Shown: positions 1,134-11,096 of the stretch, piece after piece | Position numbering within the stretch: the first letter of the stretch is position 1 | How the letters are laid out: the number at the start of each line of letters is the position of its first letter | DNA from: Planctomycetota bacterium | Lineage (GTDB): Bacteria > Planctomycetota > Planctomycetia > Pirellulales > Lacipirellulaceae | Direction of reading: 5' to 3' | Assembly (NCBI GenBank): GCA_039190745.1 | Contig: JBCCXZ010000094.1 | Span: 1 to 11,096, forward strand | DNA: 11,096 bases | Made by a program: the position numbers and the translations under genes | The notes under the pieces: model-generated | The model's input: the letters and a program-made list of their open reading frames with translations, nothing else | Databases searched by the model: none | Told to the model about the DNA's origin: nothing

Positions 1134-3362
1134 TCAAGCTTCTGCGGGGGCAGCGGCTTCGGCCTTGAGTTCTTCCTGCGCGTCCTTCGCCATGAGATAG
1201 GCCTTGATGCTTTGCATAATGAGCCTGCCGCAGTTAGCGATCTCCGCGCTACGCCGAGATCGGTTCTTCAATGCCCTGATCTCGACGAGGATGCGGGAGT
1301 TGGGGTACTCGCCCGCGGCCAGCCCGATCCCGCTGGTGCGGGTCACGCGGATCTCCTTGAGCTGCATCTCCACGCCGAAGGTGATCGGCCGGACGTCGCT
1401 CGTGGAATGGAGCGAACTCGTAGAGACCTCCATGCGGACGGTGTTGTCCTTGATCGAAACAATCCTGGCCTTCTGGTCGGAAACAAAGCCCCGCAGTTTT
1501 TCCACAGCGATCTCGACGGGGACCGGAGAGATCAAGTCGGCCGACATCGAGTTCTTGGCCCGGGGCTTGAGGAACGACCACCAACGCTTCCCGCCTGCTT
1601 CCTCAGTCATGCCATTCCCCAACTGAACGACCTGATTCCTGCCCTGCTCTTTGGCCATCAACAAGGCCCTGTCTGAACGCCGCAGCATGGTCTCGGGTGT
1701 GTCGCCCGGCTGCACCTCGGTGACCCCAAAGCTCGCGGTGATCTGCTTGCCGCCCAGGCAGTCGTGTTCGATCTCGGACAGCCGAACCCGCATGTCTTCC
1801 GCTCGTCGGGCGGCGTCCGCGGTGCCGCAGTCCGCGCAGAGCACGGCGAATTCCTCGCCCCCGTACCTGGCGACCAAGTCTCCGGACCGGCAGTTCGCCT
1901 TCAGCAGTTTGGCGAGCGTGATGATCGCCTCGTCTCCGGCTTGGTGGCCGAAGGTGTCGTTGATCGACTTGAAGCGGTCGATGTCCGTCATGATCAAGCT
2001 GCAGGGCAGGCGAGACTGCTGGTGCGACTCGATAAACAAAGCCAGCATCCGGTCGAACTCGCCGCGATTGGCGACCTTCGTCATCGGGTCTTGCGTGACT
2101 TCGGTGTTCAGTTGGTCGCACTGCTGTTCGAGCGAGGCCAGTTGCTGCAGGTCTTCCAAGAGCAGCGTCGCCCCGAGCGGCGCCCCGTCCTTGCCCGGCA
2201 CTGGCGTGACCGTGAGCTGGATCTCCGTGTCATTGCCGGGACGTTCTCTAATGATGACCTTCTGCGACAGCCGCGAACCGCTCTCGATCGAGCGGCGCAG
2301 CGGGCAGGCGCTCTCAGTGATGGGGCGGCGGAGCTCGTTCTTCATCCCGAGCAACTCGGGCAGGAACGCCTTGCCAACCGCGGCGTCGCGGGGGATGCCC
2401 GTCAGCCGCTCCGCCCCGACGCTCCACATCGTGATCCGAGATTCGTTGTCGACAAAGACCACCCCGTCGCGGAGCGAATCAACCAGTACCTGGTCGAAGG
2501 GCGAGACGTCGCAGTCTTTGGGGGCTTCTTCAGGCAGGGCATTCGTGGCTGTCTGCCAAGGCAGAGTTTCGAGCCGCACCGCCATCTGGCCTAGCCAGTC
2601 GGAAGCCACCGTGCGGTAGAGCGATTCGTGGCCCTTGCTGTTGAGCTCCGTAAATTGCTTGACCAACGCGGGGTCGAACTGAGTTCCGGCGAACTCGAAG
2701 AGCTCCGCGAGTGCCCGCTCGCGGGGCCGAGCCGGGCGGTAGACCTGGTCGGTGACCATCGCGTCGAAGGCGTCCGCGATCGCGATCATCCGCGATTCCA
2801 GCGGGATGTCTTGACCCGCGAGGCTGCCCGGCTCTCCGTCGTAATGGTCTAGGCAATGCCGCACCGCTCTGAGCAAGCGTTCGGAACCACAGCACGCCGC
2901 GATGATCTGCACGCCGGCGGCCTGCTGGGCACGGACGAGCGACTTCTCTTCAGCGGTCAGGCGCCCCGGCTTCAGCAGTACGCGGTCCGGGACACCGATC
3001 TTCCCGATGTCGTGTAGCAGCGCTGCGAGTTCTAAGACATCCCGCGTTTCCGCGTCGAGTTCTGCGAATTGCGCCCACGCGCTGCAGCTGAGTGCAACGC
3101 GGCAGCAGTGTGCTGCGGTGTGCGGATGTTTGAAGTGGATCGCCGAGAACAGGGCCCCTCCCAGTCCCAGTCGGGCCTGCGCGATGCTGACCTCATGCCG
3201 CGATTGCTCAAGGGGCTCGCTGGCCGAGAGTCCGCTGGCTGACGCGGCCTGTTCGAGTGAACTCAGCAATGCGGGGACGCGCTGCGGGGTCGGCTCAGGG
3301 GTGGCGGGCGCAGAGTGATCCAACGCTCCAGTTGGCGCGTTGCTGGCAATGGCGTCGTCCAT
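1134..3362 (-). CDS. Diguanylate cyclase: degenerate HD-GYP, PAS, GGDEF and an unknown C-terminal domain (742 aa)
   Basis: HD-GYP-like motifs: LLHDIGKIGVPD.VLLKPGRLT.EE, IPLESRMIAIADAFDAM, AGTQFDP. PAS: DSLRDGVVFVDNESRITMWSVGAERLTG. GGDEF: DPMTKVANR, DIDRFKSINDTFGHQAGD, RSGDLVARYGGEEF, ITASFGV, AKEQGRNQV. Confidence 0.95.
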   Translation of the reverse strand: MDDAIASNAPTGALDHSAPATPEPTPQRVPALLSSLEQAASASGLSASEPLEQSRHEVSIAQARLGLGGALFSAIHFKHPHTAAHCCRVALSCSAWAQFAELDAETRDVLELAALLHDIGKIGVPDRVLLKPGRLTAEEKSLVRAQQAAGVQIIAACCGSERLLRAVRHCLDHYDGEPGSLAGQDIPLESRMIAIADAFDAMVTDQVYRPARPRERALAELFEFAGTQFDPALVKQFTELNSKGHESLYRTVASDWLGQMAVRLETLPWQTATNALPEEAPKDCDVSPFDQVLVDSLRDGVVFVDNESRITMWSVGAERLTGIPRDAAVGKAFLPELLGMKNELRRPITESACPLRRSIESGSRLSQKVIIRERPGNDTEIQLTVTPVPGKDGAPLGATLLLEDLQQLASLEQQCDQLNTEVTQDPMTKVANRGEFDRMLALFIESHQQSRLPCSLIMTDIDRFKSINDTFGHQAGDEAIITLAKLLKANCRSGDLVARYGGEEFAVLCADCGTADAARRAEDMRVRLSEIEHDCLGGKQITASFGVTEVQPGDTPETMLRRSDRALLMAKEQGRNQVVQLGNGMTEEAGGKRWWSFLKPRAKNSMSADLISPVPVEIAVEKLRGFVSDQKARIVSIKDNTVRMEVSTSSLHSTSDVRPITFGVEMQLKEIRVTRTSGIGLAAGEYPNSRILVEIRALKNRSRRSAEIANCGRLIMQSIKAYLMAKDAQEELKAEAAAPAEA

Positions 3363-3758: not shown

Positions 3759-4835
3759 ATGAACCGCAACGACGCACGTTTGGGGCGTAGAAGGCGCGTC
3801 CTTCAGGAAGAGATCCGAGTGGCGACCGAATCCGCGATGGCGATCCCCGCGCAGTCCGATCAGCAGATCGAGCCCGGAGACACGCCGCGTTACGGCGTGC
3901 GTGCGAACATCGAGAACCACCCTCAGGTGACCGACTTCGTGCCGAGAAGGTACCGTGTCATCGGGGCCTTTGTGGCTGTGCCTTTGGCAATCGGTGCGGT
4001 ATTCGAGTGGGGCCGTTATGAATCGGGTACGCTGGCCCAACTCCTCCAGATGCCGAAGCTCGAGCCCCAACTCAACTCGGTGTTTGCCAGACTGTCGGAC
4101 TGGACTTCCGCGGTCGTGATGCTCCTCGCTGCGGTGGCGGCGATTGTTGTGTTCTCGCTCCGTCGCTACCGGGTGGACGACTACCGCGGCCGCTACCGAA
4201 CCTGGCGGCTAGCGGCGCTGGTTAGTTTTCTTGCCAGCGCGAACGCTGTAGGAAAAGTCCACACTTTGGTAGCCGACGCGGGTTCCACAGCCCTGGGGCA
4301 GTCGTACCTGCCTGGGGGGGCGGGGTGGTGGCTCTTCCCGGCGACTCTGGCGGCCGGTTGGGTGCTGTTCCGCATCGCGTTCGACGCAGCCGAGTGCCGC
4401 TCGGCTTTTGCGGCCTTCGCATTATCCGGGGTCCTGCTCGCCGGCGCCGCCGCCTGCACCGTAGGTTGGGTCCCGTCCACAGCTTTGTTGGTTGAAGTGA
4501 GTGTCGCCGCGCCGATCCTCCTGCTAGGCGGCTACGTCATGGCGATGGCAGGGTGCCTCTTCTACGCCCGGTATGTGGTTTTGGACGTTCAAGGCCTCAT
4601 CGAGCACCAGTACGTGAATGTCTCAACGGCCACTACAGTAGAGCCAGAGGAGAACACTGCTTACCCGATCCAAACCGAGCCGATAGCGGCAAGGACGCCC
4701 AAGAACGAGGCCCCTTCGGCGTGGGTGGACGGCACAGAGCCCGAGGAGCAAGACTCCGGCTCGCGGCCGCGGAAGCTATCGAAAGCAGAGAAGCGTCGGC
4801 TGCGGAAGCGGCAGGCGAATCAACGGGCCGCGTAA
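3759..4835 (+). CDS. Hypothetical polytopic membrane protein (358 aa, roughly 7 TM helices)
   Basis: Long ORF filling the gap between divergent and downstream genes. It has multiple hydrophobic stretches, a charged loop RRYRVDDYRGRYRTW, and a basic tail RKLSKAEKRRLRKRQ. No family recognised. Confidence 0.85.
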   Translation: MNRNDARLGRRRRVLQEEIRVATESAMAIPAQSDQQIEPGDTPRYGVRANIENHPQVTDFVPRRYRVIGAFVAVPLAIGAVFEWGRYESGTLAQLLQMPKLEPQLNSVFARLSDWTSAVVMLLAAVAAIVVFSLRRYRVDDYRGRYRTWRLAALVSFLASANAVGKVHTLVADAGSTALGQSYLPGGAGWWLFPATLAAGWVLFRIAFDAAECRSAFAAFALSGVLLAGAAACTVGWVPSTALLVEVSVAAPILLLGGYVMAMAGCLFYARYVVLDVQGLIEHQYVNVSTATTVEPEENTAYPIQTEPIAARTPKNEAPSAWVDGTEPEEQDSGSRPRKLSKAEKRRLRKRQANQRAA

Positions 4836-4957: not shown

Positions 4958-6535
4958 ATGACCATTCGTACCCGATTCGCCCCCAGCCCCACCGGCTACC
5001 TGCACATCGGCGGCGTCCGCACCGCGTTGTTCAACTGGCTCTTCACCCGGTCCCAGGGCGGCAGCTTCATCCTGCGTATCGACGACACCGACCAGCAACG
5101 GAATGTCGACGAAGCGCTTGCCCCGATCCTCCGCGGCTTCCGATGGTTGGGGATCGACTGGGACGAGGGGCCCGAGGTCGGAGGAGACGCGGGGCCGTAC
5201 TTCCAGTCGCAACGGTCTTCGCTTTACAGCGCCGCCGCGGAGCAACTGCTCGCTAGCGGGGCGGCCTACAGGGATTTCGCCAAACCGGAGGAGATCCAGC
5301 AAGAGCGAGAGGCCGCTCAGGCGGCCGGGGAGCCCTTCGTTTACAGCCGCAAGTGGGCGGCGGAAAACGAATCCGACAAGGCCCGTTTCCGTGCCGAAGG
5401 CCGTGAGTCTGTCGTCCGACTCAAGATGCCGCGGGAAGGCGAACTCGTCCTCGACGACATCATCCGCGGCGAGGTCCGGTTCCAGTGGGCCCGGGAGCAG
5501 GACCACGTGATCCAGCGGGCGGACGGCTCGTGCCTCTACCACCTCGCGTCGGTCGTCGACGACCACGAGATGCAGATCTCGCACGTCATCCGTGCCGAAG
5601 AACACCTCTCCAATACGCCGCGGCAAGTGTTTATCGCCCAGCAGCTGGGTTACCACTTGCCGCAGTTTGCTCATCTGCCGTACGTCGCGGAGCCGGGGAG
5701 CAAGAACAAGCTCAGCAAACGCAAACTCGAAAAGTACCTGAAGAACCGCGAATTCGCCGCACTACGCGACCACGGCCAGTCGGTCGCCGACCGCACAGGG
5801 CTGGAGACCTCGCCCGAGACCTTCAACCCGGTGATCGTGGACTTCTACGAGCAGACGGGGTTCCTCCCACACGCGGTCATCAACTACCTGCTGCTGCTCG
5901 GCTGGTCGTTGGACGACAAGACAGAGGACTTCACTCTCGAGGAGATGCTGCAGCACTTCTCGCTCGAGCGCGTCAACAAAGCGCCGGCTAGCTTCGACGC
6001 CCAGCGGCTGATGTCGTTCCAAGACCGGGCGATGCAACGACTGCCGATGAAGCAGAAAGTGGCTTTCGTCCTGGCGTTTTTGCAGAGCGCAGGCTTCGTG
6101 CCCGAGCCGCCGCCCTGCGAGACGGCGCCGTACCTCACCAAGATCCTGGAGGCGGCGGGCGACCGAGTAAAGATCGGCGGCGACATCCTCGACTACGCCG
6201 AGTTCTACCAACCCGACGAGGAGTTCTCGTACGACGAGAAGGCGTTCAACAAACGGCTGAAGAAGCCCGAGCGTGCAGCAGAGTTGCTTGGCGCCTACCG
6301 CGACGAGCTTTCCAAGGTTGAGTTGTTTTAGGCGGAGCCGCTCGATCAACAACTGCACGCGTTCGTTGAGCGACAGGGGATCAAGATCGGCGACATCATC
6401 CACGCCATCCGAGTGGCGGTCACCGGCAAGGCGGTCGGGTTCGGCGTGTTCGAGACGCTAGAGATACTCGGCCGCGACCGTTGCTTGGCGCGTATCGACC
6501 GGGCACTCAGCCTTGTAGCGACTGCCGATGGCTAG
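4958..6535 (+). CDS. gltX: Glutamate--tRNA ligase, interrupted by an in-frame TAG at 6329-6331 (codon 458 of 525 sense positions)
   Basis: [16 protein letters not shown] (HIGH), [52 protein letters not shown] (KMSKS). After the TAG the frame continues [67 protein letters not shown], the typical GluRS C-terminal anticodon-binding helical domain. Confidence 0.95.
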
Positions 6536-9456
6536 CCGGCCTCGTTCCGGCGGTTGTTGGCTCCACTGTCGCCTGGCTTCTCACCCTCGGTCTTGCCGCC
6601 CTTCTTCGTGTCCGCCGCGCCCGGCGGCTTGCCGCCTGGCCACGGTTGGGCCAGGGCCTCCGCGACCGCGGTCTTCAACTCAGACGCGGTTACACCGCCG
6701 CGGACCTTGTGCAGCCGAACAACCGTGTTCGGTTTGGCAGCCTCGTCCAGCCGGGTGATGATCTCCCGCACACTGTCCCAGATCTCTTCTTGGGCCGAGA
6801 CGATCAGCGTGTTCGAGATCGTGTCTACGCCAACAGACAACGCCCCCTCGAAAGTAACCTTGACAGCCTTGGGTTTCTTCTGTGTGTCGTCATCGGGACC
6901 CGACCTACGGAAGTAATAGGTAGTCTCCCTGCCTGACTTCTTACTGTCCTTGCCCTGGAATTCCTTATCCTTCGAGCTCAGCAAGTCTCGGTAGACTTCC
7001 TTCAGCGCGTTCGCCACGTCCGTTGCGCTGGAGTACTTCAGCTTGATCGCCTCGGTGCGACGGGTGGCGATGTCTTCCTCACCCGGCGCCCGATCGTAGA
7101 TCTCGATCAATTGCGAAACCACCCGGAGTTGCGACTCGCTAGCGTTCTGCACCACGATCGTGTTGGTGTCGTAATCGTAGATAAACCGCAGTCTCGGCGG
7201 CGCCGAGAGCGTAGCCGGCCCTTGCTTGGCCCGCTTGTTGCCCTCGTACTCGCCCCAGAGGTTGTAGACCGATTCCTTCTGGCCCTTGAGTTCTTCTTCG
7301 AAGTACTCCTCTAGGTTCAGCACAACAAACGCAGCGCTCGAATAACGGAGGTGGAAGACTTCGAACTCTGGTTGCGGTGCCGCGATCTCCTCGAGCAGCA
7401 TCTCCAGTTCGTCTAGCGCCGCGGTATCCTCGCTCCGCAGCACCATCCGGCCGTCGGGAGTGAGGATGACGTCAATCGGCGGTGACTCTTCCGCAGGATC
7501 GGAGTCGGTCGCGTGTTCGTCTGCGACCGCGGCGAACCGGAAAGGGCCGCCCGCACGCTTCCCCATTGTGACCGTGTCTTCGGCGGGCGAATCTCGTTCT
7601 TCACGCACTGGTTCGTTCGATTTCTCCTGAGCAGGCTTCTCGGACTCGCCCGGCATCACCCGCACACGGAGTCGGTTCTTCCCGCCCCACGCAGATTCAA
7701 GCTGCCTGAGCAGACGCTCGTTGTCCGCGGCGGACCGTGCCCCCAGCACCCGCATCTTGCTCGGGTTCGCCGAGCCGCCGCCCGGAGTTTCGCCCAGCTG
7801 GGTCAGCAGATCTCGCACCTGCTCGATCTCGGTGTCGTTCGCCCACACCAGCAGGCGGTTCCGTTCGAGGTCGGCAAGGGCCTTGAAGCCAGTCTGCTCT
7901 TTCTTCTCATCCTGCCTAGGACGACCGAAGTAGAAGAAACTCCTCCGAGAGGGCTGCTCTTCCTTCTTCTCTTCCCCCACAAGCAAGGCGTTGACCGTGC
8001 CCGCCACTTGGTCGGCTGCGAGCCGACGCAACCAAAAGACGGTGATCCGCCTACCCGGGCTGTCGAGTTGCACGATCATCTGGTCAATCTTGCGGTGGTC
8101 TTCCTGGGTGGCGTAGGCGTAGATCGTGTTGTTGTTAGCGTCGCTCTGAAGCTGTGTCCGCGGATCGAGCCGGGCGATTTCCTTGAGCGCCGTCACCACG
8201 GCCTCGACGCTCGCTGTGATGGTCTTGTGCGGTTGCATCGATAAGGAACCCGAAGCAAGGCCGCCGCCCGGAGCGGCCGACACCTCGGAGTCGTCGTCCG
8301 GCCGGTCGAACAGCCGGATCGTCCGCTCGATCGTCGGCATAAGATCTCGTGGCGCGTTAACCAGGATGTTGTTCCGACGCCGGTTGACTGCGATGTGCAC
8401 CGCGGGGCCGTCTTTCTTCAGCAGGTTCGAGACGTCTTTCCCCTTCTGCTGCATCTGGGAGTAGAGCTTCAGCCGCGCCTGCTCCAGTTGCAGCTCCATC
8501 GGGTTCTTCCGCGAAGCGGGGTCGAGGCCCAGCACGATCATCACCTGGTCGGCGATGTACTCCGCGCCTCGGTGGTACAACTCGAACTCGCGGGGTTTGG
8601 GGTAAGCCGCCGCAGCGGACTGCTCGGAGTAGAAGAGGTCCCGCACGTCCCGTAGGTTGGCGACCGCGTCGATCACCAGGAGCCGGTTGGTCGCCAGGAG
8701 CGGGACCACCTTTGCGTGCGGGCTGAGCAGCACCTTAACGTCTTCCTTCGCCTTTTCGATGTCGAGGCCGGGCGGCAGCTGGAAGCGCACCCGCACAAAG
8801 TCGTGCGGCGGGTAGTCCTCCAAGTCGTCGGCTTCGACCCGGGCGACCAGGCTTGGGTCGAGCTTGCTGATCTGCACGACAGAGAGCACTTCGCCCCGGC
8901 TGACCATCGTGAACCCTCGCGCGAGCAGGTGACGGTTCAGCAGGTCTCGTGTCTCCGGGATGGTGTACTTGCGCTGCGTCGTGAGGTTCAAGTAGTCCGG
9001 CGGCAACTCTTGCCAATCAAAGCTGTAGCCCGCCACGTCTGCGAACCACTGCAACACGTCGGCCCAAGGCTGGCCTCGGAAGCTGAACTGCACCAGCCCG
9101 CGTTCGTCTGGAGCCGCCTTGAGTTCATCAGGGTTGGGAGGGGTTGGCGGTTTCTCGGGACGTTTGGTGACGGGAGCCTCTTCCTCTTTGTCCTCTTCCT
9201 CCTTCTCTTCTTTTGGTTTCTCCTCGTTCGCGGGCTGCTCCGTGGCCGGAGGAGGTTGGGGAGGCTCTCCCCTGCCGCGGCTACCCCGGCGACGCATCAT
9301 CTCCCTAACACGAGCCTGCTGCTCCGGCGGCAGCTGCTGGATCTGCTCCTCGGTCGGCTGTGCCGAGCACTCCACGCCGGTCGAGACAACGACTGTGACG
9401 AGAACCATCAAGGCGAGCAGCAATCGAATGATGCGAGAGACGTGGAGAACGATCAT
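6532..9456 (-). CDS. Exported secretin N-terminal (N0 plus NolW-like repeat) protein, GspD-related but lacking the secretin beta-barrel (974 aa)
   Basis: Signal peptide-like N-terminus (RIIRLLLALMVLVTVVVSTGVECSA|Q). N0-like segment VQFSFRGQPWADVLQWFA...LNL. Repeated L-x-[YH]-x-x-A...D-x-x-x-N-x-[LI]-[LIV]-V...[IL]-x-x-[LY]-D units, e.g. IKLKYSSATDVANALKEVY...VDTISNTLIVSAQEEIWDSVREIITRLD. Ends in a low-complexity tail. Confidence 0.85.
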   Translation of the reverse strand: MIVLHVSRIIRLLLALMVLVTVVVSTGVECSAQPTEEQIQQLPPEQQARVREMMRRRGSRGRGEPPQPPPATEQPANEEKPKEEKEEEDKEEEAPVTKRPEKPPTPPNPDELKAAPDERGLVQFSFRGQPWADVLQWFADVAGYSFDWQELPPDYLNLTTQRKYTIPETRDLLNRHLLARGFTMVSRGEVLSVVQISKLDPSLVARVEADDLEDYPPHDFVRVRFQLPPGLDIEKAKEDVKVLLSPHAKVVPLLATNRLLVIDAVANLRDVRDLFYSEQSAAAAYPKPREFELYHRGAEYIADQVMIVLGLDPASRKNPMELQLEQARLKLYSQMQQKGKDVSNLLKKDGPAVHIAVNRRRNNILVNAPRDLMPTIERTIRLFDRPDDDSEVSAAPGGGLASGSLSMQPHKTITASVEAVVTALKEIARLDPRTQLQSDANNNTIYAYATQEDHRKIDQMIVQLDSPGRRITVFWLRRLAADQVAGTVNALLVGEEKKEEQPSRRSFFYFGRPRQDEKKEQTGFKALADLERNRLLVWANDTEIEQVRDLLTQLGETPGGGSANPSKMRVLGARSAADNERLLRQLESAWGGKNRLRVRVMPGESEKPAQEKSNEPVREERDSPAEDTVTMGKRAGGPFRFAAVADEHATDSDPAEESPPIDVILTPDGRMVLRSEDTAALDELEMLLEEIAAPQPEFEVFHLRYSSAAFVVLNLEEYFEEELKGQKESVYNLWGEYEGNKRAKQGPATLSAPPRLRFIYDYDTNTIVVQNASESQLRVVSQLIEIYDRAPGEEDIATRRTEAIKLKYSSATDVANALKEVYRDLLSSKDKEFQGKDSKKSGRETTYYFRRSGPDDDTQKKPKAVKVTFEGALSVGVDTISNTLIVSAQEEIWDSVREIITRLDEAAKPNTVVRLHKVRGGVTASELKTAVAEALAQPWPGGKPPGAADTKKGGKTEGEKPGDSGANNRRNEAG

Positions 9457-10611: not shown

Positions 10612-11016
10612 CTAGGGTCGAGCGGAAGCGGGGACAGTAAATGCCGCAGCGCCCCCGGCCGCGACGACCACGGCGAGGAACCCTTCGGCAGGCGGCGGTT
10701 CCTCGAAAACGGGAGCCAGGTAGGGAAAGACCCGTGGGACTTCCTCGGCGCAGCGGGCCATGGGAAAACCGTAAGCAAACAGCGCGGTCTCGTTAGCGGA
10801 CTGCTGGGCGATCGCGTCTTCGACCGCCTCAGCGCCTAGCCAGCCCCGAGCAATCTCGCCGCCGATGTCGTCCTCGCAGTCGAGCAGCAGCACCACGGTC
10901 GGCTCACCGTCGAGCGCCTCATCGTAGGCGGCGAACACTAAATCAAGGCTTTCCTCTAGGAACCGCTCCTGAGTTTCTTCCGGCGTCTCGGCGGGGCCCG
11001 GCGGCGGGGTGGTCAT
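10612..11016 (-). CDS. Acidic hypothetical protein (134 aa)
   Basis: ATG at 11016-11014 has GGAG upstream, so I prefer it to the track's 11073 start. Composition is protein-like. The stop lies 36 nt before the icd start on the same strand. Confidence 0.75.
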   Translation of the reverse strand: MTTPPPGPAETPEETQERFLEESLDLVFAAYDEALDGEPTVVLLLDCEDDIGGEIARGWLGAEAVEDAIAQQSANETALFAYGFPMARCAEEVPRVFPYLAPVFEEPPPAEGFLAVVVAAGGAAAFTVPASARP

Positions 11017-11096
11017 GCGGGGGCAACTCCAGGGGGGAGGTGCGAGCGTACCGGCGCGGTCTGGGCGGTACAAGCGGGTCCTGAAGCCGGGAGGTC

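Follow-up and report, generated by a model that had tools for sequence, protein, structure and literature searches.

The glutamyl-tRNA synthetase (GluRS) gene, gltX, of this planctomycete MAG is interrupted by an in-frame TAG, and nine further mid-gene stops lie elsewhere in the genome. These stops are probably consensus errors of an oxidative-damage type, which in the case of gltX affect an ordinary gene covered at low depth. In the living cells GluRS would then be a normal protein of 525 residues, and the TAG would be one of a genome-wide series of G:C>T:A changes of the type made by oxidised guanine (8-oxoG). The main evidence is the genome-wide pattern of stops. It is out of view from the window alone, that is, the stretch of 11,096 nucleotides analysed here, which is the entire contig C94 of the assembly G000 (draft, 3.89 Mb in 125 contigs, 65% GC, 95.5% complete).

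The interrupted gltX gene

gltX opens with an ATG at 4958 and meets the TAG after 457 codons, with 67 sense codons beyond it (Table 1), as the original prediction had read them. Its named homologs are planctomycete proteins (Pirellulales, Bythopirellula). The catalytic domain (PF00749, E 8.4e-87, Pfam) carries the HIGG and KLSKR motifs, and the G000 gene scores above the TIGR00464 cut-off. With an X at the stop, the 525-residue product also matches the Anticodon_2 domain (PF19269) at residues 388-517 (E 2.7e-31), and the 67-residue tail alone matches positions 84-141 of that profile (E 5.2e-19). The TAG splits this domain, which is complete only on readthrough of codon 458 and not in one open frame. 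The tail is identical to the closest ortholog, P0001, at 59 of 67 residues (422 of 457 before the stop) and keeps 26 of its 27 strongly conserved columns. Judged from its sequence it is intact and without decay, which bears out the C-terminal domain proposed beyond the stop. The CTAG palindrome shared with the convergent gene is consistent with position 6535 being the true end of gltX.

GluRS is an essential enzyme, and its distal anticodon domain contacts positions 34-35. The part lost beyond the stop corresponds approximately to residues 409-468 of Thermus thermophilus GluRS (from an ungapped match to its residues 373-467). A literature search for papers that identify the anticodon-contacting residues of the distal part found none. 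Position 36 is decided by Arg358 according to the accessible part of PMC2978374, and the equivalent of this residue lies upstream of the internal stop.

The tail has no usable restart near its beginning, as had been claimed: a scan for start codons found no ATG, a first GTG at 6413 (28 codons past the stop) and a CTG at 6353. The hairpin proposed downstream of the stop can indeed be drawn (-10.6 kcal/mol) but does not rise above chance level. The 60 nt past the stop fold with z = +0.48, 136 of 200 shuffles are as stable and the segment ranks 112th of 152 windows along gltX. No second full gltX was found in G000, the other matches being a GluQ-like gene (C87) and a GlnRS-like gene (C5).

Several neighbours of gltX were also characterised. 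A 358-aa membrane-like ORF adjoins it upstream. The convergent gene (6532-9456, minus strand) encodes a 974-aa protein with five Secretin_N repeats and, by Pfam, no secretin pore domain. A 742-aa HD-GYP-like/PAS/GGDEF protein (1134-3362, minus strand) is predicted to combine domains for c-di-GMP synthesis and breakdown in a single chain. Pfam gave no match for three ORFs, namely the 358-aa membrane-like one at 3759-4835 (plus strand) and those at 847-1137 and 10612-11073 (both minus strand).

Table 1. Coordinates of the features discussed, in the window or by contig of G000
Feature	Location	Strand	Remarks
gltX, glutamyl-tRNA synthetase	4958..6535	+	525 codons with the internal stop read as sense
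In-frame TAG, codon 458	6329..6331	+	Glu opposite in the closest ortholog; column variable (E/T/D/A/S/N)
Conserved tail of 67 codons (C-terminal portion of the alpha-helical anticodon-binding domain)	6332..6535	+	natural TAG at the end (6533-6535)
Hairpin of the original prediction	6339..6372	+	no stronger than chance
CTAG palindrome	6532..6535	.	natural gltX stop (+) and stop of the convergent Secretin_N-repeat gene (6532-9456, -)
Nine sister stops in G000	C23:50449, C41:15077, C33:9627, C40:3733, C42:14084, C3:26954, C17:35232, C73:14579, C1:129960		
tRNA coordinates given with the tRNA-Glu/tRNA-Trp observation	C9:4906, C118:1177, C12:1457, C121:2560		

The relatives have a sense codon at codon 458, where an alignment of orthologs had been suggested as a check. 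In all 29 loci taken from relatives in the family and the order, the frame stays open across the site, with Asp (16), Thr (9), Glu (2), Ala (1) or Asn (1) at the column. Among the best 120 protein homologs a residue is present in 119 (Glu 39, Thr 33, Asp 31, Ala 7, Ser 5, others 4), the remaining one being a partial record. PF19269 was matched in 115 of 120 family genomes and a stop inside the domain occurs in G000 only; three other family genomes have split or partial matches. The only congener, G001 (92% complete), gave no match to the 11-kb region, gltX included, which is probably an assembly gap. With gltX missing from the G001 genome, the nearest comparison is P0001 (92% identity, 525 aa, no gaps), which has Glu opposite the stop. 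The original codon 458 was likely GAG, changed by G-to-T. Another family MAG, G113, carries a TGA in the catalytic domain of its gltX (C357:12825-13598).

Stops elsewhere in the genome and their spectrum

A coding-potential scan of all of G000 yielded 51 candidates, of which 22 passed filtering and ten were kept as mid-gene TAG or TAA stops (six TAG, four TAA). They fall in gltX, in rho, in greA-, uvrA- and methionine aminopeptidase (map)-like genes, these three recognised by eye, and in genes on C42, C3, C17, C73 and C1. The rho stop is the sole one among 40 full matches to TIGR00767; G000 also has a second rho-like gene. The discarded candidates comprise a conserved TGA (C4:22163), stops present in G001 as well (C16, C26, C53), adjacent in-frame genes identified by eye (C19, C58, C106, C25, C56) and cases judged antisense or weak (C100, C46, C33:276). 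Gene annotation of G000 will call the nine sister-stop genes broken.

The residues opposite these stops are mixed. Glu is found for gltX, for rho, the greA-like gene and C42 (GAA in G001; C42 through a 76%-identical alignment) and for C3 (GAG in G001), and the C17 stop is presumably a Glu site, an assignment made from its GxxExxY motif alone. The uvrA-like stop lies opposite Asp/Glu (GAC in G001, GAG in G015, GAT in G008), the map-like stop opposite Lys (AAG) and those of C73 and C1 opposite Tyr (TAC).

G001 could be compared over 2.8 of its 4.9 Mb, at about 91% nucleotide identity to G000. In G000, 19 stops aligned within 1366 orthologs (466,754 codons). Four were clean and mid-gene; the other 15 were terminal or in poorly aligned ends. 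The reverse control, 1246 G001 orthologs (436,209 codons) under the same rule, gave 12 aligned stops and none clean, a contrast of 4 versus 0 that involves small numbers.

Nine of the ten stops fit a single G:C>T:A change from a Glu or Tyr codon where 47% would be expected (P = 0.007), the expected shares being calculated from G000 codon use with all substitutions equal and the original codons being partly inferred. Seven are Glu and two Tyr (expected shares within this class 54% and 17%); Ser, Cys and Gly source codons, with an expected share of 30%, are missing. On the coding strand these changes are 7 G>T and 2 C>A. The mixture of opposite residues thus entails both directions, as a strand-blind process gives. 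Transitions account for 0 of the 10 stops (26% expected, P = 0.05). Normal divergence from G001 has no such G:C>T:A bias: four-fold sites show 20,729 transitions and 16,312 G:C/T:A differences. The estimated rate is about 7e-5 per susceptible base. Missense G:C>T:A changes (148 vs 153, 82 vs 78 and 46 vs 43) show no visible excess at an expected surplus of 4-8, which is below noise. A repair-mutant origin was rejected because mutY and fpg are intact in G000.

Two further regularities emerged post hoc. G001 differs at codon position 3 as well in all five acidic sites for which it has a codon (GAA/TAG three times, GAG/TAA and GAC/TAG, as G001/G000; post hoc about 0.004). Each of the five housekeeping stops is a TAG with G as the next base (post hoc 0.003), a context found in 5 of the 6 TAGs overall (post hoc 0.015); at true TAG stops a G comes next in only 23% of cases.

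The stops might also be real, recent nonsense alleles, with GluRS(1-457) active enough, perhaps by means of basal readthrough or a separate tail. The truncated protein still contains the catalytic domain and half of the anticodon domain (the first half), and G000 has a second rho-like gene. Dubois 2009, cited in PMC3927822, announces in its title that the free distal domain stimulates a C-truncated GluRS, and the available part of PMC7918605 reports in-frame stops briefly persisting under selection in bacteria. Such an origin is nevertheless quite unlikely. About ten null alleles, several of them in housekeeping genes, would have to be at majority in one wild population, and none arose by transition although transitions are about as common as G:C/T:A changes at four-fold sites. 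The repair genes are intact, the gltX tail has no usable start close to where it begins, and no full-length paralog was found in G000. The version first put forward, a nonsense mutation covered by a paralog or a suppressor tRNA, gains no support: neither a second full gltX nor a suppressor tRNA was found in G000, whose tRNA set is incomplete.

Base support and route to the consensus

Run X1 (marine metagenome, contigs) contains 98% of the region's words and is the probable source run of the window. One X1 Logan contig (2826 bases, depth 9.66) spans 5701-7000 with 0 differences, TAG included, and neighbouring X1 contigs have depths of 9.0 and 9.5. The X1 assembly probably derives from the same reads and is not independent support; moreover, contigs drop minority alleles. 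A slip peculiar to one assembler is excluded because the X1 contig shows the same base. The site is uncovered in runs X2 and X3, no RNA dataset is listed with the region, and scanning JGI metagenome contigs for the site's pattern gave 0 matches.

A plain sequencing or assembly error without any particular chemistry (a base-calling fault in a T run, or a wrong bubble path) would suit the depth of about 10, the TTTT directly before the gltX stop and the lone TGA in the gltX of G113, which shows that such stops occur in drafts. This is unlikely all the same, given that the second assembly agrees over 1300 bases, that T runs are lacking at the nine sister stops and that the spectrum is skewed to G:C>T:A. 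There is also no frameshift excess in G000 relative to G001 (1 split ortholog in each direction). Of the GAG>TAG error initially favoured, the base change remains likely, P0001 having Glu, while the T run and the single-assembler slip had to be given up. The order in which the explanations had been ranked, with error first and programmed readthrough last, holds.

Oxidative damage, which we prefer, would date from the environment, the extraction or the library preparation. The damaged base would then have entered the consensus through the roughly ten-fold coverage, by way of duplicated molecules or of an assembly bubble that strain variants had split. Sample handling can form 8-oxoG, and the C>A/G>T artefacts that result are documented (Costello et al. 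2013, PMC3616734), and in the portion of that paper at hand the artefact is a minority allele (<20%). Against damage, the gltX TAG is the consensus in two assemblies at an even depth of 9.0-9.7. For a damaged base to reach this status, heavy duplication or bubble splitting would be required, and depth so uniform speaks against whole-genome amplification. Polymorphic third positions could explain the two-step differences from G001 and help a damaged allele to win. The points that still count against damage are the minority-allele nature of the published artefact, the third-position differences and the TAG-G context.

If damage is indeed the cause, low-depth MAGs may carry G:C>T:A changes of this type at consensus level. 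G000 would hold some 150-200 such bases, a figure extrapolated from about ten stops. In essential genes they would be mistaken for nonsense alleles, pseudogenes or recoding, and assembling the same reads anew would reproduce them. Before recoding is invoked for a lone stop at a Glu or Tyr codon, the substitution spectrum of the whole genome should be consulted.

Genetic code and comparison with known systems

The code of G000 looks standard. RF1 and RF2 are present, RF1 with its PQT and GGQ motifs. The 2751 predicted genes end in TAG (1198), TGA (1009) or TAA (544), so that 63% terminate with TAG or TAA, and G001 is similar. No drift to TGA was detected against G001 orthologs (83 TGA-to-TAR pairs, 70 reverse), and neither the base after TAG (p = 0.13) nor the distance to the next stop (p = 0.97) differs from G001. 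A search for PylS in the 95.5% complete genome gave a best score of 27.7 bits against a cut-off of 178. No tRNA with a CUA or UUA anticodon occurs among 48 ARAGORN and 46 Infernal hits, in a bin that misses His, Phe, Lys-UUU and Gln-UUG, and a relaxed ARAGORN scan produced noise-level hits only. The searches for a second gltX, a CUA tRNA and pylS that had been suggested came back empty in G000. The literature, searched non-exhaustively, offered phage, ciliate and engineered cases but no bacterial TAG-to-Glu reassignment among the matches listed.

Among the tRNA genes of G000 are four different ones for Glu (two CUC, two UUC) and two identical copies for Trp. In G001 at least 36 tRNA genes are arrayed within about 7 kb; a counterpart of this array was not seen in G000.

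The stops could also be real and fixed, UAG and UAA being leakily read as Glu so that gltX, rho, greA, uvrA and map are made at full length. Such reading would depend on an unbinned tRNA-Glu with anticodon UUA or CUA, or on inefficient termination at UAG-G. Eight of the ten sites are Glu, Asp/Glu or Lys, and the two-step differences from G001 would suit older, fixed stops. The TAG-G context of the five housekeeping cases, compared with 23% at true TAG stops, the TAG consensus in two assemblies, the four tRNA-Glu genes and a tRNA set incomplete enough for a suppressor to lie outside the bin point the same way. We find this very doubtful, as two sites are Tyr codons and the opposite residues are mixed rather than one. 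TAG and TAA still end most genes, with neither a TGA drift nor closer back-up stops; RF1 is intact and the ARAGORN and Infernal hits hold no CUA or UUA tRNA. About 8 sites against about 69,000 Glu codons are far too few for a settled reassignment. Were it true, a free-living marine planctomycete would be in the ambiguous-intermediate stage of stop-codon reassignment, its GluRS dependent on readthrough. With RF1 kept and UAG/UAA still the main stops, it would be a living bacterial example of a stop turning into a sense codon.

A stop in the same genome that is likely to be truly recoded served as positive control. The TGA of an FG-GAP/ASPIC-UnbV gene is present in 39 of 39 matches, from 21 of 120 family genomes; the gltX TAG is unlike it, since this TGA is widely shared and the TAG is not. 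The gene encodes a 1391-aa FG-GAP/ASPIC-UnbV/redoxin/TPR protein, and the TGA falls in one column in the three copies checked (G000 C4:22163 and C7 at about 2312, both minus strand, and G001 L131:15196). The three best-scoring homologs have Cys at this column, but only 7 of 120 do overall, and selA and tRNA-Sec lie together on C29 of G000. The protein is likely a selenoprotein and appears among the candidates in S9 Table of PMC4807772.

Programmed readthrough specific to gltX, or pyrrolysine insertion, by which GluRS would regulate itself, could draw on the tolerant column at a helix start and on the conserved tail. It is extremely improbable and, on sequence grounds, appears largely refuted by the unconserved stop, which no relative shares. 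The hairpin is at chance level, PylS scores below the cut-off and similar stops interrupt unrelated genes, and the autoregulation put forward in the original prediction is not supported on these points. Shared in-frame stops under selection are described in bacteria in the accessible part of PMC7918605, where unshared ones are set aside as largely artefacts.

Among known systems, amber recoding (pyrrolysine, or the TAG-as-Gln phage code 15) resembles G000 in having in-frame TAG or TAA opposite a sense residue. G000 differs in its lack of PylS, its intact RF1, TAG as main stop, only about ten sites and mixed residues; a suppressor tRNA was not found. Codes with UAR as Glu exist in some ciliates and in Blastocrithidia. 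Lone stops in draft or MAG genomes, such as that of G113, are likewise single, unshared stops in an otherwise intact conserved gene, whereas G000 has a genome-wide set of one substitution class. The 8-oxoG artefacts, as far as the available part of PMC3616734 describes them, are also G:C>T:A, blind to the gene strand, seen at strongly selected sites and absent from relatives. They differ in their low allele fraction in deep human data, their CCG>CAG context and their read-orientation bias; the G000 changes are consensus bases at about 10x, and the CCG context is inapplicable to stop codons. Finally, compared with bacterial GluRS (PF00749 and PF19269; TIGR00464; T. thermophilus 1J09/1N77), the G000 gene has the same domains, the HIGG and KLSKR motifs and the 525 codons of P0001, and differs by one TAG at codon 458.
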